64,000 nucleotides of DNA from a virus (taxonomy: Duplodnaviria; Caudoviricetes). Under the pieces are notes generated by a model, which was not told the origin of the DNA, ran no database searches, and saw only the letters and a list, made by a program, of their open reading frames with translations. Made by a program: the position numbers and the translations under genes. This document shows, one piece after another, positions 1,683-26,252 of this stretch. The stretch lies in the IMG/VR virus record IMGVR_UViG_3300025000_000055. One strand, 5' to 3'. The first letter of the stretch is position 1; every line of letters starts with the position of its first letter.

Positions 1683-1914
1683 AATTTTTTACATAATTTT
1701 CAATTTCATTTATCTTTAATTGTATTATTTCTTTTTTTTCATATAAAGAGTTAAGAATATCGTTATGACCACGTAACTCCCATTTTGTTTTACACATAAT
1801 ATATTCAATATTGTTATAATAATCTATTATTCCATTGGGTGTGAACCAAATTTTAAAAAATTCATCATAAAGTAATAACTTTTCATTCCTAGCTTTATTA
1901 ATTAAAGATTCCAA
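1681..1914 (-). CDS. Hypothetical phage protein, paralog of 1350-1634
   Basis: Shares the ESL..A..EK....WFTP....W.LR pattern with its neighbour. Confidence 0.6.
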   Translation of the reverse strand: MESLINKARNEKLLLYDEFFKIWFTPNGIIDYYNNIEYIMCKTKWELRGHNDILNSLYEKKEIIQLKINEIENYVKN

Positions 1915-1931
1915 TGTTTTAAGATAATTAA

Positions 1932-2303
1932 TTATTTCATTTTTACTAGAAATAGAAAAAGTTCCATTCCTAGATAAATATTTGTATAATCAAACACCCC
2001 CTCATTAACTAGTTTATTCAAATAATTCAACTGAATAAGTTCTATATCTAAAGGTTTAAAATTTAAAAAATTAACATCTACGCTACCGTATTTATAAATA
2101 CGGTAGTTATATTCCATTTTACAAGCAGCTCTATAAATTCTAATTAGTTTAGTTATATCAATATTCTTTTGACATAATTCAAAATACCAGTCCATTAATA
2201 ATATTGCCTTATCATTATAAAAAGAATTAAAAAGCATGTATAAAAGACCCCCCATTATTTTTTTATAGATTATATTTCTTAATTTTATTCCAAATAAATA
2301 CAA
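1932..2303 (-). CDS. Hypothetical protein
   Basis: ORF in a co-oriented cluster; the true start is probably the internal Met after the GGGGG RBS. Confidence 0.5.
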   Translation of the reverse strand: MYLFGIKLRNIIYKKIMGGLLYMLFNSFYNDKAILLMDWYFELCQKNIDITKLIRIYRAACKMEYNYRIYKYGSVDVNFLNFKPLDIELIQLNYLNKLVNEGVFDYTNIYLGMELFLFLVKMK

Positions 2304-10506: not shown

Positions 10507-12543
10507 TTATATACGTAGTATATTACTATGATATTCATCTTCAGTTGTCTTAATAGTAGCAATACCCAAACTATCTAATACTCCATGGAATGTAGATAGA
10601 TTATTATTTATAATAGTATTATAATCAATAAAAGGAATAATCCAATCTGGTATCTTAGGTATATTTCTAGGTAAACCTATAACTTTAACTCCTTTCTCTC
10701 TTATTTTCTTATCACTAGCATGATATATATTTTCAATAATTCTCTCATATATTTCGGGTTCGGATTGCTTTATTTTTTCAATAGATTCTTCATCCATATT
10801 AACCTTAATAATATCAATATGTTCAGGTAATTCTATTGTATTATCTGGATAAGCAAAATTCCATGCTAAAACAGCACGAACACCCATTTCTCTTAATGGA
10901 TCTTTATACGCTTCTAATTCCTTTACTGATTTAGGAATTAAGAATTCCTTCTCTCCAGATTGTAATGATAATCTAATCATATTTTCTAATTTTTCTAATT
11001 CTTTTAAAATATTAGATATATTGATTTCTTCAGTTGATAATAAATGCTCTTTAATAAGATTTTTAAAGAATTTTTCTGTTGCCTCTCTTGTCGATGATTT
11101 AACAAAGTCTAAGCCCTTTATATCAATTTTCTCAGGATATAACTCTTCACCCTCCCTTAGTCTAATACTAGCAATATATCTTTTCTTTTTTTGTGTTAAT
11201 ATTAGTCTTGTAAATAAAAATTCATTTTTCATATTTATTTTTGGTCTATATCTTTTAGGTATATTTACATTTTTAGTATATTTTTTTAATGTATCTGTAA
11301 CCATATTAGTTATTATATATGCTAATATATTAATAGAAATAAATTTTAATTCAGTTTTATCTTTATTTATTAATTTATCATTAACATTAATAATATCAAA
11401 TCTAATAAACTTAACCCAATCATCAACTGTTAATATAGTAGAATCAGTATCTGAACCGACTACAATTTTTCTTTTGTCATATTTAAGTCTACGAATTCTA
11501 TTATATGGTGAAAAGTTAAAGAAAACAAACTCTTTATAGTATTCCCATAAGAGTTCTAAATCTTCTTTTATATTTTTGGGTATATTGCTAGGATTTTTAA
11601 AAGTATCAGTATTTTCTATAATATATGATAACATATTTCTTATTTTTCTTAATTTTGAAAACTCAAGTATATTATTTTTATAATAAATTCTATTAATATC
11701 TTTTTGACTTAAGGTCATTAAATAATTTAAAATAACAGAATTATATTCTTCTTTATATTTAAAAAATCTTTTCTTTAAATATTTCATTAATTGTTTTAGA
11801 CTAATATTTTCTAAAAAATTATCATTAAAAATTCTTTTTTCTTTAATTACATTGGATATAAAAAATATACACTCCTCCAAATTATTAAAAGGTGCATTAT
11901 TTCCTAAGAAGGTTTCAAAAGACATTTCAGCAGTACTAATCAATGACTGTCCAACATTTGTCACAGCTGATGCTATATATATATTAAAAAAATTAGATGT
12001 TGGTGCTCCACTTGCTCCGTAAAAGCTATTTGCGTTTACTTTTTCAGAACCTTGTAATCTATCAAATGTACCATATTCATAATCATCTTTAGAATATTTT
12101 TTTAATTGACCCTTATACTCTTTTCTTAATGACATAAAATTTTCTAACATAACTGCGGCGGGGTTTAATGATTCATCTTGATTTTTAAAAAATACTCCAA
12201 ATCCAGCAATTATAGGTTTAGTTTTTTTTATCCAATCATATACTGATATTAAATCTACATTAATAGATTTATGAATATAATTATTATGAATAATAGCTTT
12301 AGGATTAATTATATTTTTATCTATTATATCATCTAAAACATTTGATATCTGTGTATCTGTTAATTCTGGATACATTCTTTTAAATATTTCTATATTATTT
12401 TCTTTCCAATCTTTTATAAATAAACTCTTATTTATTTTAGAAATTATTATCATCTCCTTTAATATAAGTTTTTGATAAAGAATTAATATTTTGTTATTGA
12501 GTTTCTTATTTTTTATTTTAATTGAAAAATGCCTATAGAACAA
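10507..12543 (-). CDS. Family B DNA polymerase, C-terminal subunit (fingers/palm/thumb; phiKZ gp50-like)
   Basis: Motif B KVNANSFYG, motif C GSDTDS, KKRY and KGLDFVKS. The real start is probably near 12453. Confidence 0.9.
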   Translation of the reverse strand: MFYRHFSIKIKNKKLNNKILILYQKLILKEMIIISKINKSLFIKDWKENNIEIFKRMYPELTDTQISNVLDDIIDKNIINPKAIIHNNYIHKSINVDLISVYDWIKKTKPIIAGFGVFFKNQDESLNPAAVMLENFMSLRKEYKGQLKKYSKDDYEYGTFDRLQGSEKVNANSFYGASGAPTSNFFNIYIASAVTNVGQSLISTAEMSFETFLGNNAPFNNLEECIFFISNVIKEKRIFNDNFLENISLKQLMKYLKKRFFKYKEEYNSVILNYLMTLSQKDINRIYYKNNILEFSKLRKIRNMLSYIIENTDTFKNPSNIPKNIKEDLELLWEYYKEFVFFNFSPYNRIRRLKYDKRKIVVGSDTDSTILTVDDWVKFIRFDIINVNDKLINKDKTELKFISINILAYIITNMVTDTLKKYTKNVNIPKRYRPKINMKNEFLFTRLILTQKKKRYIASIRLREGEELYPEKIDIKGLDFVKSSTREATEKFFKNLIKEHLLSTEEINISNILKELEKLENMIRLSLQSGEKEFLIPKSVKELEAYKDPLREMGVRAVLAWNFAYPDNTIELPEHIDIIKVNMDEESIEKIKQSEPEIYERIIENIYHASDKKIREKGVKVIGLPRNIPKIPDWIIPFIDYNTIINNNLSTFHGVLDSLGIATIKTTEDEYHSNILRI
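12484..12495 (-). promoter_or_regulatory. AR9-like late promoter AACA-N6-TA
   Basis: AACA-AAATAT-TA about 30 nt upstream of the RBS of the polymerase C-subunit. Confidence 0.5.
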
Positions 12544-12560: not shown

Positions 12561-13034
12561 TTGAAAGGTTGTGTTATTGTGATATTTAATAAAAGTGGAA
12601 AAACAGATACTTCTACTGAAGATTTAAGTCCAGAATCATTATCTTTAATTATTGAGTCTATGATGAAAGATGAGTTAAGTAAAGAAGAATTGGAAGCTTT
12701 CTTAGAAAACTCATCTGAAGTTAATTCGGCTATGGGTGATGACATATTACTTGAAAGAACTATTGTCAGAATGGATAAATATGCAAAATTGAATAGGGCT
12801 CAAAAAATAGCAGTATTTACTATTGCTAAAGAAAAGAAAAACCCTAAATTTAAAAAATTATTAACTATTTGGAGAATTGAAAGATTCCTAGAAAATGAAC
12901 TTATGAAACAATACGGTAATGAAGGTATGCGTCGTGCTAAAGCTAGTTACAATAAAGCACGAACCTCAACTTCTAAGATCGTTAAAACTGTTGCTAATAA
13001 GGTTCATAGTCAGTTTAACAGTGGAATTAAATAA
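12561..13034 (+). CDS. Probable small virion/head protein
   Basis: Late promoter; acidic N-terminus ending in an ILLE putative protease site, followed by a basic C-terminus. Confidence 0.55.
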   Translation: MKGCVIVIFNKSGKTDTSTEDLSPESLSLIIESMMKDELSKEELEAFLENSSEVNSAMGDDILLERTIVRMDKYAKLNRAQKIAVFTIAKEKKNPKFKKLLTIWRIERFLENELMKQYGNEGMRRAKASYNKARTSTSKIVKTVANKVHSQFNSGIK

Positions 13035-13038
13035 TTTA

Positions 13039-13072
13039 AATAATACTAGATGTATATACATCTAGTATTATT
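13039..13072 (+). terminator. Intrinsic terminator
   Basis: AATAATACTAGATGTA-TA-TACATCTAGTATTATT followed by Ts. Confidence 0.7.
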
Positions 13073-13092
13073 TTTCTATGTTCCATCGGTTA

Positions 13093-13105
13093 AAATATAT
13101 ATTAT
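13093..13105 (+). promoter_or_regulatory. Early promoter motif AAATATATATTAT
   Basis: Exact copy upstream of the RNAP beta'-C gene; a late motif (AACA-AATGAA-TA) follows at 13118-13129. Confidence 0.55.
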
Positions 13106-13159
13106 TAATAAGTAAAAAACAAATGAATAACTTATAATAAAGGAGAGGAATGATGTTAA

Positions 13160-16100
13160 TTGGAGAATAACATAAAAGAAATTATCGATCTATTAAGTAA
13201 TAAGGTTTTTGTTATTTCTGATATAATGGAAAGTAAAGAAACCTTTAATGACATATTAGAAACTGTTTATGACTATTTAAAACAAGGTTTCGAAATCAAA
13301 GAATTGAGAACATGTCCAACCTATTTTAAGTTTAAAGAAGAGGGTGAAATCCATGTATTACAATTAAGACATTTTCTTACCAATTTAATGTTTTGGGAAC
13401 CATTAATGAGATTTGATTATTCTGATAAGATAGATGAGACATATATTGTTGATTGTACTAAAATGTCAAGTAAACTAATTAAGAATTATATTGATAATAA
13501 GATAGTTATACCTTATAAAAGAATAATTCCTAATAAGAAAATGAACAAAGTTATTCATGATATGATTTATAATCTATCTAGAATTTCAAGAGATTTTAAT
13601 ATCATATTAGGTTTATCCATGAATCTTGAAACATTTATTGATGTTGCCAAAAGGAACCCAAGATTTAATGAAATTATTAGAACCCAATTGGATGAAGATA
13701 TGCAACCAACTGAAATTGAAGCATATTTAGATAAATTAATGTATGAACAAATGGATATTTTAAAAAATGACGAGGAGGGAAATTTATTAAAACCAATACT
13801 TAAATCAGGTGCTGGTATAAAAAGTAAACAATTGGCGGAGTTTTCAATTTCTTCAGGGTTAAATATTAGCCCCGTATATAGGCGACTATGTGCGTAAACC
13901 TCTTTAATTGCTGGAAAATCTCTCAAACTCTACTATTCTACCAAAAAAATATTAATAAAAGATGGTGTTAATATTGAAATTAGTTAGTGTTGATTACTAT
14001 AAAAAAGAAAGGCAATATACTATTACCTTTTTTAAGAATAAAAATGGATATAAAACAAGAACTAAAAGATTCACTTATTCTGAAAATACCCATGGTCCTT
14101 TTACTAAATTTCTTGCTATGTATACAGCAAAAACAGGTAAGAGATTATACCACTGGTTTGTTACCGATGGTATATATACCTCAGTTTTTATATATAATAA
14201 AACTTATGGTATTAAACGTATGCTAATAGACAATGAATTTATAGATATTGTAAGAAATCATAAAATTAATATAGTAAAAAATAAAACGGGTCAAGATATT
14301 TTTTATGCAATAATAAAAATGAATGGTAGAAATATTCATGTACATCGTCTTATTATGGGTTTAGGAAAATATAATAATGATCCAGTAGATCATATTTTTC
14401 ATGATTCTTTAGACAATAGGAGATTAAATCTACGTATTTGTACACCTAGTATTAATAATAGAAATTCAAGATTACGTGTTGATAATAAAAGTGGTATACA
14501 AGGAGTTTATTTTAGTAAGCATAGAAAAACATATATTGCAGAAGTAAGGGATTTAAATGGTAAAAAAATTAGAAAACACTTTAAAATAAAGCATAATGGT
14601 AGAGAGAAAGCCATTGAATTAGCAAAACAATGGCGTGATGAAATGGTAGAAGAATATTATGAGAGAAAATCAGCAGCGAAGCCTGAATTTCAGGAACGTT
14701 CAACGACTATCAAAAGCATGTTTATTATTAATATAAAAATATAATAAACATAAGCGAGTAGAGTAGGGCTAGAAGCTAATGCTAGTTCGAAACGGGAGGC
14801 ATCTCTATGAGATGATGATATAGTCTATTATCCTAGAGTAATTTAGGGAAGTTCATAAGAGAACTGTATAGGCGTTGCGTCCTATATGAATTAAAAGTAA
14901 AACCGACTCTTAGTGGTAACACTATACCTATACCAATTAATACAAATTATATAGTTGGTGGACTGAGAAATATATCTAATTATTATATTGATTCCCTAAA
15001 CTATATTGGGGCTTCATACAGTGATGTATGTTGAATAACTTCTTTAATTGTCGGGGAAGCTCTTAGAGCTTTTTATTATATAATAAAAAGATTGAGTAAT
15101 CCGCAGCTAAGATTCCTATTAGTTATAGGAATAAAGTTCAACGACTATCCCCCATTGGCTTTGAAATAAGCAATAGGAGTAGGGCTCAAGTGAGTGGGTG
15201 AGAATCCCTTAAATCGAAATAGGAAGCATCTCTATGAGATGAAGATATAGTCTGGTATCCTAATGAAAGTTAGGGAAGTTCATAAGAGAACTGCATAGAT
15301 TAACGACCTATGTGAACTTACGAGGTGGAAGAAAGTCTTTAATTATGAGCAAACTTGAAATGGGTAAATTGAGTTGCCCATGCTTCTTTAATTGTCGGGA
15401 AATCTCTTAGAGCCTAAAACTACCAAATCATAGTAGTGATATTATGGTGGCTTAGTCTAATCAACTAAGGTATGGTAACAAGGTTTTAGGATTGAGTAAT
15501 CCGCAGCTAAGTTATTTTGTTATGTGTGATATTTTTATATAATTAAAAAAATCTAAAAAAGGAGGTGATATAATATGGGAAAAGAAATATGGAATAAAAT
15601 TATTATTGATGATGAAAATACTAAATATAGTATTAGTTCTTATGGAAATATAAGAAATGATATTACAGGATTAATTTTAAAACCATTTAAAAATCATGAT
15701 GACTATCTTGTTATTACATTATACCATAAAGGTAAAAAATATCTTAGAAGAATTAATATTTTAGTGGCTAAAGCTTTTATACCTAATCCTTTAAATAAAC
15801 CTACAGTTAATCATAAAGATGGTATTAAAACTAATAATTATGTTTATAATTTAGAATGGGCTACTTATTCTGAACAAAACATTCATGCATTTAAAATGGG
15901 TTTAATGAAACCAAAAGTTGGAGAACAATCTCATTATAATAAATATCCAGAGACTACAATTCATAAAATATGCAAATTATTAGAAGATGGATATGACCGT
16001 AAGCAAGTATCTGAAAAATTAAATGTACCAAAATCTCTAATAAAACATATTATAGGTGGTGGATCATGGAAACATGTTTCTTCACTATATATAATAGATC

Positions 16101-17713
16101 GTGAAAAGACTAAAACCAAAATATTAACTGGTTCTAAATCATATTATAGTAAATATTCTGAAGAAACTATTCGTGAAATTTGTTATCTATTACAGAAAGG
16201 TAAAAGTAGGAAATATATTAAAAATAAGCTTAATTTACTTAATACGAGGATAATAATAAATATCCAAGAAGGTACAACATGGAAACACATTTCTTCCCAA
16301 TATGTAATAATTTATGTCCCACATCATATCATACACAACAAAATAAAAAGTTCAACGACTATCAAAAACTTATTCACCATTAAAATAAATATTGGTGAAT
16401 AAAGTGAGTAGAGTAGGGCCTAAGTAGGTGGGTGAAATTCCCTTAAATCGAAATAGGAAGCCACCCAAGAGGGTGAAGATATAGTCTGGTACCCTAGTGA
16501 AAACTAGGGAAGTTCATAAAAAGAACTGCGTAGAGTAACGATTTACGTGAACACCAGGAACTCGGGTCATTTTTCGCGTATGGTCATGCTGCTAGTTTCA
16601 AGTATTAATTTATCAAAAACTGTTGAATCATGTAATAGTGTACATCCAATAAAAATTGAATTATCTTCTAAAGAACATTTGATAAGAATGAGAGGTCGAT
16701 ATTATAGAACTATGTATTCTAGAAATTATCAATTGTTAAAAGGAGATGAATATAATTTAATAAATAAAACTATTTTTATTAAATCACCTGCTACATGTGC
16801 ATGTAAAGATGGTATATGTAAAATGTGTTATGGTGACTTATCATATATAAATAAAGATATTACAATAGGTGCATTTGCTGGTACAAAAATTACAGAACCA
16901 GTATCGCAAAATATTTTATCATCTAAACACTTATTAACAACTAAATCACAAAAAATAGAATTCAATGAAGAATTTTATAAGTTTTTTAATATAAGTGGTA
17001 ATGAAATAATTATCAATGCAAGTGAAGAAAATGATGATTTAGATGATTTTAGTTTACTTATAATTAAATCTAATATTAAAACAATTGCTGATTATGATGA
17101 TAATGATATGGAATTTAATGAATATATAAATCTATTTCATGTATATAATAAGAAAACTGGTGAAATGATTGAAATAAAAGAAACTGGGGAAAAAGATTTA
17201 TATATATCACCTGAATTAAGAAAATTATTTAAGAAGAAAAGTAAGAAAGAAGTTTATGAAATTGATTTTAAAACACTTGATGATGACAATAGAATATTTG
17301 TTATTGAAGTAATTAATAATGAGTTAACTAGACCATTATATGATATTATTCGTTTAATCGATAGAGTTGATTATAGAATTATACATTGGGACTGTGTAAC
17401 AATTGACCAAATGTGTCAAAAGATGTTGGATCTATTAATAGAATCAGAGATTAATTCTGATTCTGTTCATGGTGAATTAATTTTAACACCATTGTTAAGG
17501 GATAAAGAAAATATATTAGAAAGACCTAAATTTAATAGATATTTTAATGATGATAGATACCAAATTCTAACAGTTAAAGCTGCTTTAGAAAAACATCCTT
17601 CAGTATTAGTCGGTTTATCATTCCAAGCACTTGATAGACAATTAACAAATCCATTAACATTTAGAAAGAAAGAAAGCTCATTTATTGATCCTTTCTTTAA
17701 AGAAAGACCATAG
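13160..17713 (+). CDS. Non-virion RNA polymerase beta' C-terminal subunit (AR9 gp154-like), spliced from four exons, 665 aa
   Basis: Exons 13160-13859, 14898-14997, 15323-15365 and 16559-17713 join in frame. The product reads SGAGIKSKQ..SGLKPTLSGNTIPIPINTN..YYIDSLGGRKSLIMSKLEMGNSGHFSRM (bridge helix) and has a CAC..ICKMCYG zinc site. Confidence 0.9.
13860..14897 (+). ncRNA. Group I intron 1 of RNAP beta'-C, carrying an endonuclease ORF
   Basis: P1 GGGU|UAAAUAUUAGCCC with a U.G pair; Q AAUCAGCAGC, R GUUCAACGACUA and S GAUAUAGUCU; terminal G at 14897 restores the frame. Confidence 0.88.
13962..14744 (+). CDS. Intron-encoded HNH/AP2 homing endonuclease
   Basis: VHRLIMG..VDHIFHDSLDNRRLNLR (HNH) followed by NKSGIQGVYF..YIAEV (AP2-like). 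Confidence 0.85.
   Translation: MVLILKLVSVDYYKKERQYTITFFKNKNGYKTRTKRFTYSENTHGPFTKFLAMYTAKTGKRLYHWFVTDGIYTSVFIYNKTYGIKRMLIDNEFIDIVRNHKINIVKNKTGQDIFYAIIKMNGRNIHVHRLIMGLGKYNNDPVDHIFHDSLDNRRLNLRICTPSINNRNSRLRVDNKSGIQGVYFSKHRKTYIAEVRDLNGKKIRKHFKIKHNGREKAIELAKQWRDEMVEEYYERKSAAKPEFQERSTTIKSMFIINIKI
14898..14997 (+). CDS. RNAP beta'-C exon 2 (100 nt)
   Basis: Encodes LKPTLSGNTIPIPINTNYIVGGLRNISNYYIDS; missed by the ORF track. Confidence 0.85.
14998..15322 (+). ncRNA. Group I intron 2 of RNAP beta'-C, ORF-less, 325 nt
   Basis: P1 CCCU|...GGGG; core elements AAUCCGCAGC, GUUCAACGACUA and AAGAUAUAGUCU; terminal G at 15322. Confidence 0.88.
15323..15365 (+). CDS. RNAP beta'-C exon 3 (43-nt microexon)
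   Basis: Encodes (L)GGRKSLIMSKLEMG, equivalent to bacterial GARKGLADTALKTA. Confidence 0.85.
15366..16558 (+). ncRNA. Group I intron 3 of RNAP beta'-C, endonuclease ORF in P6
   Basis: P1 UGGGU|...GCCCA; Q, R and S elements present; terminal G at 16558 is followed by AAC TCG GGT (NSG). Confidence 0.88.
15575..16402 (+). CDS. Intron-encoded HNH homing endonuclease (NUMOD4-like N-terminus, two C-terminal repeats)
   Basis: YSISSYGNIRN; VNHKDGIKTNNYVYNLEW; duplicated GxxSxYxKYxExTIxxICxLL..W.HxS units; AAGGAGGTG RBS. Confidence 0.88.
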   Translation: MGKEIWNKIIIDDENTKYSISSYGNIRNDITGLILKPFKNHDDYLVITLYHKGKKYLRRINILVAKAFIPNPLNKPTVNHKDGIKTNNYVYNLEWATYSEQNIHAFKMGLMKPKVGEQSHYNKYPETTIHKICKLLEDGYDRKQVSEKLNVPKSLIKHIIGGGSWKHVSSLYIIDREKTKTKILTGSKSYYSKYSEETIREICYLLQKGKSRKYIKNKLNLLNTRIIINIQEGTTWKHISSQYVIIYVPHHIIHNKIKSSTTIKNLFTIKINIGE

Positions 17714-17878
17714 AATTATTATATTAAAAATGTGGTGATAATATGAATAAAAAAGAATTAATACAAACTGAACAAATATCAGAGCTTTTTAATGTATAAC
17801 CTTCATCTAAAACCCAAATATTATTATTTCATACAGGGGAACCTTTGAGAATGTATATAATAAAATAAAATTTTATTT

Positions 17879-18508
17879 ATGAGAAGGAGTTGTTTTTTAA
17901 TGAAAGGGGATTTTATAAAAGTAAAAGTTGATGAGTACTTAGATATTGAGTATAAAAATACCGATTTAAATGGTAATGAAATTATACCTGATTGTTTCAA
18001 TGTCTTATCTTCAGACACAGTTATTACTACTATTAATTTCCAGGATATAATTGATACGGGGGAAGTTAGAGCTAATATCAATGAATTAGCTTTATTGAAA
18101 ATAGTTGAAATACGTTTAAAAGAAATTCAAAAAAAATCAATTAATTATAATATTGAAGATAAAATTATTACTATATGTATTGAAACAGCAATAAATATTA
18201 TACATGATGTAAAAAAAGTTACAGAATATCCCCCTAAAAACTCAATGAAACAGCGTTTAATAGAATGCTATGAGGATGCTGTTAGAAATAAAATAAAATA
18301 TATTGGGTATGTTATTACTTTAACTACTAATAATATGGATATAGAGTGTAAGATTTCTACAGTAGAAAAGTTTCAGACTAATATACAATATTTAAATAGT
18401 TTTAATAAGGATTTAGTTAAAATGGGTAATAAACATCTTAAAATAACAACATTTTGTTCCGGAAATTCATTTAGTGAAATAGAAGAAAAAATAAATAAAT
18501 TTAAATAA
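17879..18508 (+). CDS. Hypothetical protein with a degenerate Tad1-like N-terminal domain
   Basis: TTINFQ..NINELALLKIVEIRLKEIQ resembles Tad1 TIKFQ..[19 protein letters not shown] (recalled). The real start is likely ATG at 17900. Confidence 0.5.
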   Translation: MRRSCFLMKGDFIKVKVDEYLDIEYKNTDLNGNEIIPDCFNVLSSDTVITTINFQDIIDTGEVRANINELALLKIVEIRLKEIQKKSINYNIEDKIITICIETAINIIHDVKKVTEYPPKNSMKQRLIECYEDAVRNKIKYIGYVITLTTNNMDIECKISTVEKFQTNIQYLNSFNKDLVKMGNKHLKITTFCSGNSFSEIEEKINKFK

Positions 18509-18510
18509 GG

Positions 18511-18963
18511 ATGAATATATTAATGAATGGTTCTATTAAAAAAGAAACTTTTACTTTAAAATTAGCAAGAGAAATTGGAAAACCTGATAAAAATAATGTA
18601 CTTATTAGTGAAGAAATTTGGATTAATTCTTTAAACGGATATATTAAAGAATTAATAGAAAAAAATAGTTTTTTCATTACTTTAGGTAAAGAAGAACCAT
18701 TTCATGTTGATTTGTTAAAAGCTGTTGCTAGAATAAAAGAAATAAATGATAAATATGCTGTTATTGAATTAATTAAAAATTCTAATAGTATTAAGAATTT
18801 AATTGAAACTATTGGAATTGATAATTTGAGGTTAAATTTTAACACTTATTTTAAATATGAAGAAAAAAGTAATTTAAAAGTTGTAACTGAACTTAAATTA
18901 GGAACTTTTTATATAGATTATATGAATGGTGGTCCAAGCCAAAAAATAAGAGGAGATGTATAA
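18511..18963 (+). CDS. Hypothetical protein
   Basis: 150-aa ORF translationally coupled to both neighbours. Confidence 0.65.
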   Translation: MNILMNGSIKKETFTLKLAREIGKPDKNNVLISEEIWINSLNGYIKELIEKNSFFITLGKEEPFHVDLLKAVARIKEINDKYAVIELIKNSNSIKNLIETIGIDNLRLNFNTYFKYEEKSNLKVVTELKLGTFYIDYMNGGPSQKIRGDV

Positions 18964-19951
18964 TATGAAAAAACCACATCTTTCTGTACAATATAAAAAA
19001 GATTTAGGTTGTGTTTTACCAAATAAATTTGATATTATATCAAAAGTTGGTAATTATGATGATGTAAAAGTTATTAATACTATTAAATTTCAGGAAGGTT
19101 CTGTTGAGGAATTTGGAATTAATGGTGTTACTGAAGAGAGTTTATTATCTGTATTAATGATAAGATTTGAAGAACTTCAAAAAAGTCCTCTTTCTTGTGA
19201 AAAATATCAATTATCATTAGAATTAGTAAATACATTATTACAATTATTAACAAAAACAGATGAAAATTATCTAGTTCAAAATAATATAAGTAAAACAATT
19301 CTAAATCTTTTACTTGAAAAAAGAAAAGAAATTAAAGAAGAAATATTAACTAGAAAAATAACTCCAAAACAGAGACTACTTAATCTTATTGATGATGCTA
19401 TTAAATTAAATAAAAAACTTATTTCTATTTGTTATAGTTATAAGGAAGATAGTTCTTCTATTAAATCTAATAATAATACTAAATATATAGTAAATCATAC
19501 TACTAGAGTTTATGATATGATAGAATTTATATTAACTTCTTTTAATGATGAATTAAAGAATAAAATAAATTTTAACGAAAAAATAATTAGTTTTTGTTAC
19601 AGTGAACCTCAGTATTCAAAACATATTGAAGAATTACTGTTATCTAATCTATATAAAGTTGATAAAATACCTAAAAATTGTTTACTTAGTTGTATGAATG
19701 AAGTATTCAATAATGGATTTAAAAATAAATGTTTTGATTATTTAAAAAGAGATGAAAAAGGTTTGATACATCATATTAGAATTATGGGTGAAAAAGTTTA
19801 TCTAAGAGAATTAGAATATATTACCCTTTGCTATGATGATGAATTGAATAATATCTTTTTTAAAGATATTATGATTTTTGGTTTTTATTCAAATCAATAC
19901 AGTAATTTTAATGACGTTATAGAAATAATGAAAAAAAGTAGATTTTATTAA
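18956..19951 (+). CDS. Hypothetical protein with a Tad1-like N-terminal domain and an unknown C-terminal domain
   Basis: NTIKFQEGSVEEFGINGVTEESLLSVLMIRFEELQKSPLSC matches the recalled Tad1 core pattern. Confidence 0.6.
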   Translation: MYNMKKPHLSVQYKKDLGCVLPNKFDIISKVGNYDDVKVINTIKFQEGSVEEFGINGVTEESLLSVLMIRFEELQKSPLSCEKYQLSLELVNTLLQLLTKTDENYLVQNNISKTILNLLLEKRKEIKEEILTRKITPKQRLLNLIDDAIKLNKKLISICYSYKEDSSSIKSNNNTKYIVNHTTRVYDMIEFILTSFNDELKNKINFNEKIISFCYSEPQYSKHIEELLLSNLYKVDKIPKNCLLSCMNEVFNNGFKNKCFDYLKRDEKGLIHHIRIMGEKVYLRELEYITLCYDDELNNIFFKDIMIFGFYSNQYSNFNDVIEIMKKSRFY

Positions 19952-20032
19952 AATAATTATGTATTAATAAGTCATAGTTTATAGTATGTAAGTTATAATA
20001 TAAACTATGACTTATTTTTTTATAAAGAATTT

Positions 20033-20045
20033 AAATATATATTAT
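20033..20045 (+). promoter_or_regulatory. Early promoter motif AAATATATATTAT
   Basis: Exact copy upstream of the ORF 20100 / DEAH helicase unit. Confidence 0.55.
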
Positions 20046-20099
20046 AATAGTAGATTTAATTTTATAATAAATTATTTAAATTCTGAGGGGGAATATAAA

Positions 20100-20360
20100 A
20101 TGGCAGGTAGAGGAACAGTAAGGGCTTTAATGAATTTAGTAAGTGATTTTTGTGAAGTTCATGAAGAAAAGTATAGGGTTGTTAAATTAAAAGAAAGAAT
20201 TAAATTTACTCGAAATATTAGAGGCGGTTCTTTGGATGATTTAAAAAATGGGGTATTATATTTATTTGAAAAAAGTCATTCTGGTGATTGTCTTTGTCTA
20301 TTAAATGATAGCCATTTAGTAATCGTTGATAGAAGAGATATTTTAGATATAATTTGTTAA
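20100..20360 (+). CDS. Small hypothetical protein
   Basis: The GAGGGGG RBS before ATG 20100 indicates that the track start at 20007 is over-extended. Confidence 0.6.
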   Translation: MAGRGTVRALMNLVSDFCEVHEEKYRVVKLKERIKFTRNIRGGSLDDLKNGVLYLFEKSHSGDCLCLLNDSHLVIVDRRDILDIIC

Positions 20361-22345
20361 ATTTTATTGGGGGAGATGGGATAATGTATAAATTTAAAGA
20401 ATTAAATTTACCGATTCATAATTATAAAGATGAAATTTTATCAGCAATTAAAGAAAACCCTGTTGTAATTATTACTGCTGAAACAGGTGCAGGTAAATCA
20501 ACTCAAGTTCCTAAGTTCCTTATGGAAGAGGGATATAGAGTAGTTATAACTCAGCCTCGAAAAATTAGTTGTACAACCTTAGCGTTAAGGGTGAGTGAAG
20601 AAATTGGTTGTCAAATTGGTACAAGAGTTGGGTATCGTACAGCATACGAGAGAAAATGTAATAATGATACTGAAATATTATTTTGTACAGACGGACTTCA
20701 ACTTGTTCGTGAAATAAACAACAGTGTTAAAACAGACGTACTTATAATAGATGAAGTTCATGAATGGAATATAAATATTGAAACTCTAGTTGCATGGACT
20801 CATAAACAAATAGAAGAGGGTTGGTCGATAAAAGTTGTACTAATGAGTGCAACTCTTGAATCAGATGAACTAGCAACATTTTATGGTAATAATACTCCTA
20901 TTATAAAAGTACCAGGAAGACTTTTTAATGTTGTAACTCGGGAAGATTCACACTACAGATTAATTTATAATATTGAAAATCTTATTAAAGAAGGTCGTAA
21001 TGTTCTTGTGTTTTTACCAGGTAAAAAAGAAATTGATGAAACTTGTGATGAATTAAAACATTTCGATGCTGTTATTTTACCTCTTCATGCTGAACTTGAT
21101 TTAATTGAACAAGAAAAATGTTTTTTATCTTATGAACAACCTAAGGTTGTGGTTGCTACAAATGTTGCTCAAACTTCTATAACCATTCCAGATATTGATG
21201 CAGTTGTTGATTCTGGTATAGAAAGAAGAGTTGAGTTAGTTGACAATATAGAGGGGTTATATTTAAAAGATATTAGTCAGGCTGATTGTTTACAACGTAA
21301 AGGTAGAGCTGGGAGAGTTAAAGAAGGTATTTATATACTTTGCTCAGATACATCATTTGAAGAACGCCCAGTTTTTTCAACATCTGAAATAAATAGAACA
21401 AGATTAGATCAATTAGTATTACGTCTTGCTGTTGTTGGTATTGATGTAACAAAATTAGAATTCTTTCATCAGCCAGATATAGAAGTTCTTCTTGAAGCTA
21501 AAAGAAGTCTTCATGTTTTAGGTGCTATGTCATCGGATGATAAAGTAACTGATATTGGTAAACTTATGGCAAAACTACCAGTATCAGTTTATACTGCAAG
21601 AATGATTGTTGAAGCAAATAAACTTGGGGTTGTTGACGATGTGATAACTATTGCATCAATATTAGAAACAAATAGAGGTACTATTCGGGATAGAAATAAT
21701 AAATGGATATTTTATACATCAGAACGTGAAAGTGATTTGCTTGTAGAACTTGATTTATGGAATTTAGCACAAGGTAAATTAGCAAAAGAACTACCTGAAT
21801 TTGGTATATTCAAAAAGTCTTTTTATAATGCAAGAGAAATTCGTAATAAGTTGTATAAATCATTAAATGGTTTAGTAACATTTGGTTCTAATGGAGAAAG
21901 AGAATCTATCAAACAATCATGTATTGCAGGTATGATAGACCATTTATACATTAATAATCTTGGTTTATATATAAATAGTAATAGTATTGTTCCAAGATTA
22001 TTGTCAAAAGACAGTGTTGTTAAAGATAGTAGTAAATTAATTGTAGGATTACCTAAAGATATTCAATTTACTGATAGGTGGGGATATAGACGTACTATAA
22101 ATTTAGTTTCAATGATTACAAAAGTTAATACAGAGCAATTATTCAAAGCCGCACCACAACTTGTTCAAGTTGAAGAAGGTATTAAACCTTATTATAATTT
22201 TGAACAAGATTCATGTTATTCAACAAAAAAAATTTTGTTTAAAGATCAATTAATTAAAGAAGAGGATGTTGCAAGCCCAGAACATGAAAAAGCAAATGAA
22301 TTATTTATTGATTGGCTTGCTACTGTTAACAATATTATTATATAA
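20354..22345 (+). CDS. DEAH-box RNA helicase, HrpA/HrpB family
   Basis: AETGAGKSTQ, TQPRK, DEVH, SAT, ATNVAQTSITIPDI, VVDSG and QRKGRAGR motifs, plus an HA2-like region. Confidence 0.9.
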   Translation: MLNFIGGDGIMYKFKELNLPIHNYKDEILSAIKENPVVIITAETGAGKSTQVPKFLMEEGYRVVITQPRKISCTTLALRVSEEIGCQIGTRVGYRTAYERKCNNDTEILFCTDGLQLVREINNSVKTDVLIIDEVHEWNINIETLVAWTHKQIEEGWSIKVVLMSATLESDELATFYGNNTPIIKVPGRLFNVVTREDSHYRLIYNIENLIKEGRNVLVFLPGKKEIDETCDELKHFDAVILPLHAELDLIEQEKCFLSYEQPKVVVATNVAQTSITIPDIDAVVDSGIERRVELVDNIEGLYLKDISQADCLQRKGRAGRVKEGIYILCSDTSFEERPVFSTSEINRTRLDQLVLRLAVVGIDVTKLEFFHQPDIEVLLEAKRSLHVLGAMSSDDKVTDIGKLMAKLPVSVYTARMIVEANKLGVVDDVITIASILETNRGTIRDRNNKWIFYTSERESDLLVELDLWNLAQGKLAKELPEFGIFKKSFYNAREIRNKLYKSLNGLVTFGSNGERESIKQSCIAGMIDHLYINNLGLYINSNSIVPRLLSKDSVVKDSSKLIVGLPKDIQFTDRWGYRRTINLVSMITKVNTEQLFKAAPQLVQVEEGIKPYYNFEQDSCYSTKKILFKDQLIKEEDVASPEHEKANELFIDWLATVNNIII

Positions 22346-22354
22346 AACTAAAGG

Positions 22355-23380
22355 ATGTGTAATATCATGGATATACTTTCTATAATAGAATCAAATCGTA
22401 AAATACAGAAAGAAGCCAATATATTTAATATTCAAGCTGGGGAAGAAGTATTTCATATAATGACTAATTCTGAATGGAAAAGTCATTTAAAAAATATATT
22501 AAATGGTGCTAGGAATGTATCAGAAATTAAAGACTTAAATATACTTAAGATTCCACAACTAGATTCTGAGATGATAAAAATCATCTCAGAATATAATCCT
22601 AATACTATTACCATTGATGATCAAGTTTTAAATATAGAGTATAGTAAAACATGTGATAGGTTCTATGTTCTAACTAATGTTGATGAAGAATTTGCACGAA
22701 AAACTTCTTTAGAAAATATAAAACTTCCTGGAGGACGTATTGTTGAAATATGTTGCAATGGTTTATCATCTAATAATTTTATAGATTTAGTAAAAAAACT
22801 TGAGGACGAAAGAATACAAAGACGTTGGTCACAAGTTTCTAGTATGCATGAAAAATGGACATCTAATTTAAGTACAGTTCTAGAATGGATACCAAAAGTT
22901 TCAACTAAAGTTGAAATTACACGTGATGAAAATGGTGAATCAATTGTTGGTTTTCTATCATTGAAACATGAACATAATGGTTGGACATTATTTATTACAA
23001 ATAATGAACAAAAACTAACAGAAGAAATTCAAGAGGTTATTGAACAAATATTATACAAATATATTGAAAAAAGCTTTATGATTCCTAAAGAAGAACCTTG
23101 GTATAAAGATAATGGAGGAGTGTTCTTTACAAACTGGGTGTTAACCGAATTGGGTGAACAATTACAAGATAAGTATAATACAATTATATGTACTAATGAC
23201 TATAATAAAAATTTATCTATTAATAATGTAATATATAAAATTAATGAAATTAAACAAATTTCTATCTCTATTAAAAATGAGATTGAATTTGGTGTAAATG
23301 GTAATAAAATAGAGGATTTAAAATCTTCTGTAGAATTATTGAGAGACTCTTTTAATGCAAATAAATGTTACAAAAAGTAA
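22355..23380 (+). CDS. Hypothetical protein, probably the detached C-terminal part of the helicase
   Basis: Same reading frame as the helicase, separated by TAA AAC TAA AGG. NPNTITIDDQVLNIEY and IKLPGGRIVEI resemble HrpB C-terminal motifs. Confidence 0.5.
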   Translation: MCNIMDILSIIESNRKIQKEANIFNIQAGEEVFHIMTNSEWKSHLKNILNGARNVSEIKDLNILKIPQLDSEMIKIISEYNPNTITIDDQVLNIEYSKTCDRFYVLTNVDEEFARKTSLENIKLPGGRIVEICCNGLSSNNFIDLVKKLEDERIQRRWSQVSSMHEKWTSNLSTVLEWIPKVSTKVEITRDENGESIVGFLSLKHEHNGWTLFITNNEQKLTEEIQEVIEQILYKYIEKSFMIPKEEPWYKDNGGVFFTNWVLTELGEQLQDKYNTIICTNDYNKNLSINNVIYKINEIKQISISIKNEIEFGVNGNKIEDLKSSVELLRDSFNANKCYKK

Positions 23381-23469
23381 CTTTATCTTTTAGATGGATA
23401 TTAATTTAATCAATGTATATAGTTATATATCCATCTAAATATAAAGTTATTCATATAAATAATTTAAAA

Positions 23470-23497
23470 TATATAAAATATTAAAAAGGAGTTGTTC
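23470..23497 (+). repeat. 28-bp direct repeat, copy 1 (contains the RBS)
   Basis: TATATAAAATATTAAAAAGGAGTTGTTC, identical to 23939-23966. Confidence 0.85.
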
Positions 23498-23501
23498 TAT
23501 A

Positions 23502-23936
23502 ATGTTATCTCATCAGGTTGTATCAGTTTTTATTATCAACGACAAAAATGAAATTTTATTAATTAATCATAAGAAACTTAATGCTTGGCTTCCTCCAGGT
23601 GGTCATGTAGAGCATGAAAAAAATGAATTAATTCATCATGCTGCAATTAGAGAAGTGCTGGAAGAGACGGGTATCCACTTTAAATTTATAAGTGGAGGAA
23701 AAGGTAATATGGATAAAATATTGGGACCATTACCTTTACCTTCATTTATTCAACTAAAAGATTTAGGAGATCATTATCACGAAGATTTTATTTATGTTGG
23801 GTTGTTTGTTTCAAATGATATCCCTAAAGAAGATACAGAGATGAGATGGTTTAATAAAGAAAGTATTAATTCAATTAATACTTTTGAAAATGTTAGAAGA
23901 CACTTACAAATAATTTGTAATAGATACTTTATTTAA
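23502..23936 (+). CDS. NUDIX hydrolase
   Basis: PGGHVE..ELIHHAAIREVLEETG Nudix box. Confidence 0.9.
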   Translation: MLSHQVVSVFIINDKNEILLINHKKLNAWLPPGGHVEHEKNELIHHAAIREVLEETGIHFKFISGGKGNMDKILGPLPLPSFIQLKDLGDHYHEDFIYVGLFVSNDIPKEDTEMRWFNKESINSINTFENVRRHLQIICNRYFI

Positions 23937-23938
23937 TG

Positions 23939-23966
23939 TATATAAAATATTAAAAAGGAGTTGTTC
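23939..23966 (+). repeat. 28-bp direct repeat, copy 2
   Basis: Identical to 23470-23497; not followed by a substantial ORF. Confidence 0.85.
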
Positions 23967-24085
23967 CTTTAATTCGTATGATTATATTATTCAATTATAT
24001 ATTATAAAATTATAATAAGGTATAGTGCAACCAAAATATACAATTATTATATCTTATTAAAAAATAAAAAGGGGGGTTTTTAAGT

Positions 24086-24847
24086 ATGAAAAAGAAATTA
24101 TTAGTAAATATCATTGTTATTGTTTGGATGTTATCTATTTGTGGTAGTGTTTTTGCAAATCAACAAATAGGTATTAAAATCGATCTTATCACTAGAGATT
24201 TTACCACAACACCACTTGTAATGGAAAACGGAACTGTATTAGTTCCTGTTAAACCCGTCGCTAGTGCATTTAGAGGAACTGTTAAGGGGACTGTTAATAC
24301 TTGTTATGTTTATATAAACCATGGTAACAAATGTGTTGTCTTAAATCCTACTAACATAGGAGAATATTATTTACAAGAAGGTGAATATGTAAAAAAGAAT
24401 GATAGACCAATTGAAGGAAAAGTAATAAATGAAAATTTGTATGTTCCTGTGAGAGACTTTGTTGAATCTCTTGATGGTAGAGTTTTATGGGATAGTTCTA
24501 AAAATACTGTAATGATATATACTGATTCTGCTGACATGAATTATTATTTAAGTAAACAAAAATTAGAACCATCTGTAAATATATCAACAAATATGCATTC
24601 CAATAATTCAAATAGTAATTTACCATTAGATAAGAATGGTAATGAAATTCAAATTGGTGACTTGGTATCATCTGGTGCTTTTTATGGAAAAGTTCAAGAA
24701 ATAAAAGGAAATAGAGTATTGGTTTACTGGGATAGTAAATCAATATTTGTTAAGGATGAGGATGTTGATTTTTGGTCAATGCTTGCAGGAGTTAGGTATA
24801 AATCTAGTAATTGGATAGATTCGGATAAATTATTAATCGAAAGATAA
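24086..24847 (+). CDS. Secreted protein with a copper-amine-oxidase-like N-terminal (stalk) domain
   Basis: Signal peptide MKKKLLVNIIVIVWMLSICGSVFA; VLVPVKPVASAF and LYVPVRDFVESLDGRVLWD repeats. Confidence 0.8.
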   Translation: MKKKLLVNIIVIVWMLSICGSVFANQQIGIKIDLITRDFTTTPLVMENGTVLVPVKPVASAFRGTVKGTVNTCYVYINHGNKCVVLNPTNIGEYYLQEGEYVKKNDRPIEGKVINENLYVPVRDFVESLDGRVLWDSSKNTVMIYTDSADMNYYLSKQKLEPSVNISTNMHSNNSNSNLPLDKNGNEIQIGDLVSSGAFYGKVQEIKGNRVLVYWDSKSIFVKDEDVDFWSMLAGVRYKSSNWIDSDKLLIER

Positions 24848-24856
24848 ATTTTTAAT

Positions 24857-24892
24857 AATAAAAGAACTTTTAATTAAGTTCTTTTATTTTTT
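24857..24892 (+). terminator. Intrinsic terminator; same stem as 26304-26340
   Basis: AATAAAAGAACTT...AAGTTCTTTTATT plus a T tract. Confidence 0.7.
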
Positions 24893-24912
24893 TAGGTATT
24901 ATTATGTATTTT

Positions 24913-24925
24913 AAATATATATTAT
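24913..24925 (+). promoter_or_regulatory. Early promoter motif AAATATATATTAT
   Basis: Exact copy immediately after the terminator. Confidence 0.55.
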
Positions 24926-25012
24926 TTCATTGAATAAAATATTATTCCCACAATAAGGGGAAATAAATATACTTATTGTATATATCTAAGAAGATATATT
25001 TATAGGAGGTAA

Positions 25013-25090
25013 ATGAATTTTATTTCTTCATTTTTAATCTCGTTAATTTGTTTCTATGTTCCATATATGTTTTTTAAAATTATATTTTAA
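25013..25090 (+). CDS. 25-aa hydrophobic peptide
   Basis: AGGAGGT RBS; MNFISSFLISLICFYVPYMFFKIIF; below the ORF-track cutoff. Confidence 0.45.
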   Translation: MNFISSFLISLICFYVPYMFFKIIF

Positions 25091-25102
25091 GGGGGACTAA
25101 AA

Positions 25103-25543
25103 ATGAGTTCTATGTCTACTCATCAATATGTAATTATAACTTTACCCAGTTCTATATATGATGCAGATAGAGAAATAGCTGCATCATCATTAAAGAATTA
25201 TGTTTATCAATTTTGCCAAAAGTATTTTATAACTCCGGCTAAATTTCCTGTAGACTTTCACAGTACTTATAATAAATGTCCAGAATATTATTGCGATGGT
25301 AGCAATTCGTTTGAGCTCATTGATTCGAATTATGAAGGGGAATGGTTAATTTCTAAAAAAGAAAAAGTGAAATTAGCCGTAGCTATTGAAACAAATCTAC
25401 CATGTGAGAATATAGTTAAACTGTATGAACTGAACCTTATTCAAGGATTCTCAGTTCATGTGTTTGGTTCTATCTTCCTCCATAATAATATAACAGGTTT
25501 AGTAACAAAGTTGTTTAAAATAATTAATGAAAAAAAACATTAA
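25103..25543 (+). CDS. Hypothetical protein
   Basis: AAGGGGG RBS; 146 aa. Confidence 0.65.
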   Translation: MSSMSTHQYVIITLPSSIYDADREIAASSLKNYVYQFCQKYFITPAKFPVDFHSTYNKCPEYYCDGSNSFELIDSNYEGEWLISKKEKVKLAVAIETNLPCENIVKLYELNLIQGFSVHVFGSIFLHNNITGLVTKLFKIINEKKH

Positions 25544-25581
25544 ATCTAACGTTTTTAAAAAATCTTATTGTATTATAATAT

Positions 25582-25636
25582 GTTCTTTCCATGTATCCAA
25601 CATCAATAAATGAGATGTTGGATACATGGAAAGAAC
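25582..25636. repeat. Perfect 23-bp inverted repeat with a 9-nt loop
   Basis: GTTCTTTCCATGTATCCAACATC / GATGTTGGATACATGGAAAGAAC. Confidence 0.85.
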
Positions 25637-25715
25637 TATAACGCTTGCAAGGGTGAAAATACTTGCACCGTCATTGTAATTAAAAAATATTACTTTGACG
25701 TAAAAAGGAGGAAAT

Positions 25716-26252
25716 ATGAATAATAATAGTTTTAAATATTTAACTGAGCAAGAAAAAAAAGCAATACTTCTTGGAGTTATTGCTAAAAGAACTAATGGTA
25801 AGTTAAACAATGAACAATTGAAACATATTGTTCGAGATATTCCAATAGATGTACAGTATTCCATTAAAGTGTTTAGTGATGCTAAAGAATTTGGTAAAGT
25901 GATAACTTTACCTGATTATGAAATGAAACATTCATGGGCAGGGGGAACGAAATGTACTGCTGAAACTAATATTTTATTAGTGTCTGGTATAAAATTTGGT
26001 AGAAATAAACATTATAAATATCTCGATAATGGAACTTTAACTAGTGAAGATAAATGGAACTCTTTACCAGATTTCAATGTAAAAGAAATTCATGCTGTTA
26101 GTGTCAGTATTCATTCTTTTAGTGATTATAATAATGAATACTATGACAATACTGATAATTTTATATATATTTATATACCTTCTGACAAACCTTTTGTTGT
26201 GTCAGAAGAAATACAGTATATTTTTGATAATTTCAATATTTGTTTCAGTTGA
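25716..26252 (+). CDS. Hypothetical protein
   Basis: AAGGAGG RBS; 178 aa. Confidence 0.7.
   Translation: MNNNSFKYLTEQEKKAILLGVIAKRTNGKLNNEQLKHIVRDIPIDVQYSIKVFSDAKEFGKVITLPDYEMKHSWAGGTKCTAETNILLVSGIKFGRNKHYKYLDNGTLTSEDKWNSLPDFNVKEIHAVSVSIHSFSDYNNEYYDNTDNFIYIYIPSDKPFVVSEEIQYIFDNFNICFS

Follow-up and report, generated by a model that had tools for sequence, protein, structure and literature searches.

Three predicted group I introns packed around the bridge-helix region of the putative non-virion RNA polymerase beta' gene in an uncultured jumbo phage

Group I introns with HNH endonucleases in the RNA polymerase (RNAP) genes of jumbo phages, sets of three related introns in a single gene for the largest RNAP subunit, and phage genes that contain three introns and show skipping of exons have all been published, for PhiPA3, for Bodo saltans virus (BsV), and for Twort and the Bastillevirinae, respectively. 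Here we analyze positions 13160 to 17713 of a 64,000-nucleotide (nt) stretch of IMG/VR virus record IMGVR_UViG_3300025000_000055 (hereafter the window, which at about 24% G+C is very AT-rich). In this region the predicted gene for the C-terminal part of the beta' subunit (beta'-C) of a non-virion RNAP (nvRNAP) is divided by three inserts, I1, I2 and I3, that have the predicted structure of group I introns.

The gene orf142 of phage Twort holds three group I introns and undergoes exon skipping (Landthaler and Shub 1999, as related in PMC11878797 and PMC3073962). As far as these secondary accounts go, orf142 resembles our locus in having similar IA-type introns in tandem, an intron-rich genome, and small internal exons that can be skipped as the ribozymes resemble each other. 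Its host gene encodes a tail tube protein rather than an RNAP subunit, and in comparison the locus described here has two introns with HNH open reading frames (ORFs), internal exons of 100 and 43 nt, and skipped forms none of which stays in frame. For Twort, experiments demonstrated splicing and skipping, whereas here both are predicted from sequence.

The intron in the virion RNAP beta-subunit gene of PhiPA3, with its enzyme gp210 (Birkholz et al. 2024, PMC11620839), is similar in that an invariant catalytic-centre motif in a multisubunit RNAP gene of a jumbo phage is interrupted by a group I intron encoding a nicking HNH enzyme of I-HmuI-like type, at a site that is empty in a related co-infecting phage. 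It is a single intron in the virion RNAP beta gene of a chimallivirus, while we find three in the nvRNAP beta'-C gene of an AR9-like phage; its competitive effect was shown by experiment, whereas for the present phage such an effect would be hypothetical. In BsV, introns are found in polr2a and polr2b, with three related ones in polr2a (PMC5871332). As at our locus, the gene for the largest RNAP subunit (the beta' homologue) was invaded by several related group I introns, and a 'parental' copy with an endonuclease stands beside ORF-less 'offspring' copies in the same gene. BsV differs in that it is a eukaryotic giant virus with inteins, too, in its RNAP genes, and in that its insertion sites and intron subgroup are other ones.

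Further phage introns of IA2 type are described in essential genes (DNA polymerase, terminase) of AR9/PBS1 and the Bastillevirinae, up to three per gene, along with an HNH gene, g190, inside an intron of the AR9 late gene g189 (PMC5312081, PMC11878797). The beta'-C gene is uninterrupted in AR9, PBS1, BpSp, S6 and the other sequenced relatives that we checked, and sites in the bridge-helix region are occupied only in the present groundwater clade. The novelty lies in the host gene and the positions hit within it (F-loop and bridge helix of nvRNAP beta'-C), in the packing (a 43-nt exon within 143 coding nt), and in the availability of all the empty-site alleles. We consider it very probable that the beta'-C gene was colonized by three group I introns that are mobile, paralogous and IA2-like in architecture, and that these form a pile-up of selfish elements and not a regulatory device.

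The interrupted beta'-C gene

The region consists of four open frames on one strand with three inserts between them (Table 1). When the four exons (E1 to E4) are joined, the result is a 1998-nt coding sequence for 665 amino acids (aa) with a single terminal stop, and the junction peptides, with splice sites marked by colons, read ..SSG:L:KPT.., ..YYIDS:L:GGRK.. and ..LEMG:NSGH... The first-pass annotation, which was made from the sequence letters without database searches, had proposed internal exons of 100 and 43 nt and the need for three precise splices to obtain the full-length product, and both are borne out by the joined frame. It had also suggested comparing the 665-aa product with AR9 gp154. 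In a MAFFT alignment with gp154 and with BpSp gp219, the product is continuous, with 0 gaps at all three junctions, where the aligned columns are G:L-KP against G-S-KP, DS:L-GGRK against NA-L-GARK, and MG:NSGH against VR-NSGY. Homology to gp154 extends from end to end, bridge helix and trigger loop included.

Table 1. Predicted features of the beta'-C locus and related introns in the window
Feature	Positions	Strand	Description and basis
Early-promoter-like motif, AR9 type	13097-13107	+	Core ATATATTATTA, ~55 nt upstream of the TTG start
Exon 1 of nvRNAP beta'-C	13160-13859	+	TTG start as in AR9 g154; last base is the U of GGGU, partner in the P1 U.G pair
Intron I1	13860-14897	+	1038 nt, group I (P1-P9, P7.1, P7.2); helix table, all helices fully paired
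I1 ORF	13962-14744	+	260 aa, HNH and AP2-domain predicted endonuclease; Pfam, PHROG
Exon 2	14898-14997	+	100 nt; F-loop region up to bridge-helix start, ~E. coli beta' 748-776
Intron I2	14998-15322	+	325 nt, group I, without ORF; Rfam Intron_gpI, helix table, minimum free energy (MFE) fold
Exon 3	15323-15365	+	43 nt; encodes (L)GGRKSLIMSKLEMG; E. coli beta' G778-A791
Intron I3	15366-16558	+	1193 nt, group I, without P2, P5abc-like extension; Rfam (3' half), helix table
I3 ORF	15575-16402	+	275 aa, I-HmuI-like HNH predicted endonuclease (NUMOD4, HNH, two helix-turn-helix-like repeats); Pfam, PDB, PHROG
Exon 4	16559-17713	+	C-terminal half of bridge helix (NSGHFSRM..), trigger-loop region, C-terminus
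Three family introns (I1, I2, I3)	beta'-C gene	+	motif/nhmmer
Family intron with HNH ORF, terminase large-subunit gene	~40431-41448	+	motif/nhmmer
Family intron, portal-like gene	~48745-49142	-	motif/nhmmer
Two family introns without ORF, N-terminal DNA polymerase gene	~51976-52304, ~52530-52848	-	motif/nhmmer

Searches with tblastn of exons 1 and 4 against sequenced phages returned beta'-C genes only (AR9, PBS1, BpSp, and Staphylococcus and Yersinia jumbo phages), at 27-35% identity, and the matches of exon 4 to the AR9, PBS1 and BpSp genes span 98-99% of its length. A second copy of the locus (L005, described below), in which exons 2 to 4 are contiguous, matched the AR9 nvRNAP structure (PDB 7S00_D) at E 2e-40. 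In the AR9 record, g154 is annotated as 'non-virion RNAP subunit, beta' C-terminus', and its neighbors there, a gene for DNA polymerase in divergent orientation and one for a small virion protein, are also the neighbors in the window. These data indicate that what is interrupted here is an AR9 g154 orthologue, coding for the C-terminal half of beta' of the non-virion late-gene RNAP. The phage is an AR9/PBS1-like jumbo phage of groundwater origin, uncultured and AT-rich; the role of the gene product in a five-subunit enzyme that transcribes late genes we infer from this orthology.

The same L005 orthologue of exons 2 to 4 was aligned to bacterial beta' over E. coli residues 751-818, which places the inserts on the enzyme. 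In E. coli numbering, I1 lies at approximately L746-A748, at the base of the F-loop, I2 interrupts the codon aligned with H777, and the insertion point of I3 separates the counterparts of A791 and N792. Exon 3 is thereby equated with G778-A791, which we take, from established knowledge of RNAP, to be the N-terminal half of the bridge helix, and a span of 143 coding nt in the F-loop and bridge-helix region takes in all three introns. This is the arrangement that the first-pass annotation had described, with a 43-nt exon in the bridge helix; its coordinates proved exact to the base, the E. coli mapping agrees with it, and its assignment of the gene to the gp154 type of beta'-C subunit is supported by the alignment and the structure match.

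The interruption is not a general property of these genes. The exon 1 and exon 4 matches in AR9 are separated by only 156 nt, so its beta'-C gene is uninterrupted, and inspection found one contiguous coding sequence in AR9, BpSp and S6; the other full-length tblastn matches are single pieces. An intron in Staphylococcus phage S6, hinted at by a partial tblastn match, was dropped as a candidate once its gene was seen to be contiguous. Annotators should be aware that in phages such as the one described here, beta'-C will appear as four fragments interspersed with 'hypothetical' ORFs.

Intron structure and the intron-encoded endonucleases

In each of the three inserts, we located the canonical helices P1 and P3 to P9.2, including P7.1 and P7.2, and checked the pairing by script. 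All of these helices are fully paired, while P2 is found in I1 and I2 and is absent from I3. P7.1 and P7.2 are marks of subgroup IA. The P7 strands (GACUAU/AUAGUC) are invariant and form a pseudoknot with P3, and the last nucleotide is G in all three inserts (14897, 15322 and 16558). The internal guide of each intron sits within approximately 20 nt of its own 5' splice site, and the core is complete. The P1 pairings are GGGU:UAA with UUAGCCC in I1, CCCU:AA with UUGGGG in I2, and AUGGGU: with GCCCAU in I3; in each, pairing is complete and a U.G wobble marks the 5' splice site. The guide of I3 matches both flanking exons, through a P1 of 6 base pairs (bp) and a P10 of 5 bp (GAGUU/AACUC) with the first bases of exon 4. 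The upstream frames meet in-frame stops 12-15 codons inside the introns, at 13895-13897 (I1), 15032-15034 (I2) and 15408-15410 (I3). A stop shortly inside the intron is the usual layout in phages, and keeps ribosomes off the ribozyme core.

Comparison among copies supports these helices. RNAalifold, applied to ten 3' halves of the intron family, recovered P7, P7.2, P9, P9.1 and P9.2, with 7 pairs showing compensatory changes (in P7.2, P9 and P9.2). By inspection, compensatory changes between I1, I2, I3 and the other copies in the window were also found in P2, P3, P4, P5, P7.1 and P8; for example, P4 is UGCUGG/UCAGCA in I1 and UG-CGGG/UCCGCA in I2 and I3, and P8 appears as CAUCUC/GAGAUG or as CACCC/GGGUG. 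The MFE fold of I2 contains P1, P2, P4-P6, P8, P9.1 and P9.2, with a z-score of only -1.77, which is weak as stand-alone evidence. A search of the 3-kb region with the Rfam group I model (RF00028, gathering score 50 bits) matched I2 over its whole length with 38.7 bits (E 1e-7) and, with 32.5 bits (E 8e-6), the 3' half of I3. In a scan of the whole window, Rfam gave no hits at the gathering threshold and none at E<=0.01. On this structural prediction, I1, I2 and I3 are complete group I introns of IA2-like architecture and three paralogues of one another.

Splicing would then follow standard group I chemistry. The last 4-6 nt of the upstream exon would pair with the internal guide to form P1, placing the U.G wobble at the cleavage site, where an external guanosine would attack; the terminal G of the intron would dock, and the freed exon end would attack the 3' splice site. 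All three excisions would be required for the 665-aa subunit, and the early stop in each intron would halt ribosomes on unspliced RNA. Alternative splice sites for I2 and I3, placed 8-9 nt upstream at both ends by analogy with 'UG' ends at P9.2, would also be in frame; they were ruled out by the intron-less alleles described below and by gp154. As a separate observation, RNAalifold pairs GUUC, just 5' of P7, with a conserved GAAC/GAAU after P9.2 in 10 of 10 copies (alignment columns 1-4 with 225-228; window positions 15136-15139 with 15314-15317), the first pair being G-C or G-U. This is a possible long-range contact, which may place the 8-10-nt tail ahead of the terminal G.

Two of the introns carry genes for predicted HNH endonucleases that are unrelated to each other. 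The I1 ORF occupies the P5 loop and extends at its 3' end across P5', P4', P6 and P7 into P7.1. It matches Pfam AP2 (E 6e-8), HNH_3 weakly, and the HNH endonuclease family PHROG 99 (E 4e-26), with no significant match in PDB. The I3 ORF lies in the P6 loop, is preceded by a strong Shine-Dalgarno sequence, and overlaps P6', P7 and P7.1 at its 3' end. Its matches are to Pfam NUMOD4 (E 5e-9, above the Pfam cut-off), PHROG 59 (E 3e-43) and, over residues 17-114, the nicking homing endonuclease I-HmuI (PDB 1U3E, E 4e-5). No exact AR9-type early-promoter motif was found inside the introns in a search ahead of these ORFs. Presumably both enzymes nick the empty sites of co-infecting relatives and so drive homing.

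Empty sites, related copies and intron mobility

A second IMG/VR record, UViG_3300025000_000053 (249,853 nt), contains two divergent copies of the DNA polymerase/beta'-C locus, one close to each end, which differ in the introns they carry; the record probably represents a genome that is circularly permuted and was put together from two strains. The copies at 12738-25898 (L003, to which a further sequence, L004, is identical) and 240801-249853 (L005) have coding sequence approximately 88% identical to that of the window at the nucleotide level. L003 has an intron at site 2 only, with exons 1 and 2 fused and exons 3 and 4 fused, while L005 has an intron at site 1 and exons 2, 3 and 4 contiguous. 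The ligations that we predict for the window equal the uninterrupted alleles base for base, at junction J1 in L003, J2 in L005, and J3 in both, and the window, L003 and L005 alleles all yield intact frames of 665-668 aa.

Empty sites are also present in the sample from which the window came. Contigs from the DNA runs of this groundwater sample, when mapped to the region, showed the joints 13851>14898 and 15364>16580, with intervening letters identical to the L003-type empty sites, at depths of approximately 9-29 compared to approximately 13-34 for window-type contigs. A further joint, 14891>16586, fits an allele without I2 and I3. Occupied and empty sites thus co-occur within one sample. A scan of metagenome contigs returned only the IMG/VR contig again. 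Because sister phages with I2 only or I1 only keep an intact gene, and empty alleles are found in the same sample, the introns are dispensable; the presence/absence polymorphism, together with the HNH ORFs, marks them as selfish homing elements.

We considered whether the three introns might have been stitched into the gene by the assembler, with no real molecule carrying all of them. The intron core is a high-copy repeat, with a depth of 600-1300 over 15093-15414 compared to approximately 15-90 elsewhere, short-read contigs break at the cores, and the two divergent copies in UViG_3300025000_000053 suggest that strains were mixed in assembly. An artefact of this kind is nevertheless extremely unlikely: the guides pair specifically with their own flanking exons, I1 and I2 recur at their sites in contigs that were assembled independently, the border between exon 1 and I1 and both endonuclease ORFs are covered by window-type contigs showing 0 differences, and the joined frame is perfect.

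Motif and nhmmer scans identified exactly seven copies of the intron family in the window, in four genes (Table 1). The P3-P6 body of I2 (15039-15135) is 96% identical to both DNA polymerase introns (52717-52812 and 52175-52270, both on the minus strand), while its guide and P2 resemble those of the L003 intron at the same site (73% identical), which has a different P5 extension and an HNH ORF that is 36% identical to the I3 ORF. Therefore, bodies seem to have been exchanged between copies while site-specific guides were kept. Under the reading that we favor, of selfish colonization, the HNH endonucleases of two types in I1 and I3 would drive homing into empty sites, I2 would have lost the endonuclease gene still present in its sister-phage counterpart and exchanged its body with the ORF-less DNA polymerase introns, and introns would accumulate at a highly conserved, indispensable stretch of DNA.

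The family extends beyond the window. The P7/P7' motif pair is found in at least 95 stretches in IMG/VR, and in some contigs three or four copies are crowded into 2-3 kb. We observed three or four such introns inside single genes in contigs L080 (6800-9100, terminase), L070 (7200-8900, topoisomerase-like) and L013 (4700-8750, with flanking GIY-YIG ORFs); since some of these introns are only 170-260 nt apart, tiny exons between tandem introns are not unique to the beta'-C gene. An ORF-less family intron is also found in L005 (~1789-2048, minus strand), in the gene for the catalytic subunit of DNA polymerase (..VDIKG:LDFVKSS..); neither the window (10507-12543) nor L003 has an intron at this site.

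Several points weigh against selfish colonization by three spliced, mobile introns. Splicing of I1, I2 and I3 is itself predicted, as are the activity and target sites of the two endonucleases. The Rfam scores of I2 and I3 fall under the gathering score of the family, although their E-values are significant, and I1 has no Rfam match in the search of the 3-kb region, which we attribute to the ORF that splits its core. I3 was found at its site only in the window's own assembly. Finally, a scan of identity in 50-nt bins among the three spliced alleles revealed no convincing co-conversion tract in the flanking exons; there are only few synonymous differences beside J2 and J3.

The last of these points bears also on another proposal, that the HNH enzymes of the introns serve as weapons, damaging the RNAP gene of co-infecting sister phages with empty sites to the advantage of the carrier, as PhiPA3 gp210 does against PhiKZ. 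Strains with complementary intron sets share one groundwater sample, intact HNH ORFs of different families are found in I1 and I3 with a third in the L003 copy of I2, the target is an essential enzyme, and there are precedents in PhiPA3 (PMC11620839) and in a proposal for BsV (PMC5871332). All of this is compatible with plain selfish homing, from which interference is hard to tell apart, and we see no clear pattern of co-conversion or escape mutation, given the few synonymous differences by J2 and J3. We therefore rate interference as unlikely. Its extension to a stacked cassette, in which strains of one aquifer with complementary endonuclease introns cut each other's empty sites in mixed infections, seems to us similarly doubtful; if true, it would amount to a reciprocal arms race that keeps adding introns around the bridge helix and preserves the polymorphism.

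Expression, exon skipping and significance

The core of the motif upstream of exon 1 is identical to the annotated early promoter before AR9 g154, is kept in L003 and L005, and occurs in just 4 exact copies within the window. By analogy, beta'-C would be an early gene transcribed by the virion RNAP. Between the small upstream gene and this motif lies a perfect inverted repeat with a run of T behind it (13038-13074), a terminator-like hairpin that is kept in L003 and L005 with compensatory changes in the loop.

In the window, RNA that is unspliced or lacks an internal exon would give truncated products. We computed a product of 245 aa from unspliced RNA, 233 aa when exon 2 is skipped, 278 aa when exon 3 is skipped, and 233 aa when both are. 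The first-pass annotation was thus right that skipping either exon shifts the frame, with stops at residues 233 and 278. From this it had proposed that the order of splicing may gate late expression; in such a scheme, the order or efficiency of intron removal would time or throttle the late polymerase, and the frameshifted products of skipping would represent its off state.

Exon skipping itself is plausible, because I2 and I3 have identical P3 and P7 strands, so that hybrid folding of the kind seen in Twort or SIOphi could occur; their 3' halves are also nearly identical, and hybrid ribozymes are conceivable. Exon skipping by similar group I introns in tandem is on record for Twort orf142, and it affects 47% of the polymerase transcripts of SIOphi (PMC11878797, PMC3073962). 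A regulatory gate, by comparison, is very unlikely. With a complete core and a P1 guide of its own close to the 5' splice site, no intron depends on the prior removal of another. Sister phages keep the gene intact with a single intron, and sites without introns are found alongside in the sample, so there is no conserved requirement for the introns. The same family is found in the terminase, portal-like and DNA polymerase genes, as fits indiscriminate colonization of conserved genes.

A cryptic site in exon 3 offers a further candidate for variant splicing. Within 15350-15381 of the window, the sequence AACUU lies 9 nt from the end of the exon, and it could pair with the P10 part of the I3 guide (GAGUU), mimicking a P1 with its U.G pair. 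Used together with a G at 16549, this site would yield an in-frame alternative product, ..SKL-NTR-NSG...

We regard the locus as a dense example of ordinary homing introns that reveals no new mechanism. It provides a clean case, resolved to the base, of dense packing of selfish group I introns in the most conserved part of an essential enzyme. The empty-site alleles are ready substrates for studies of homing, of endonuclease specificity, of exon skipping between look-alike ribozymes, and of PhiPA3-style interference in a second lineage of jumbo phages.

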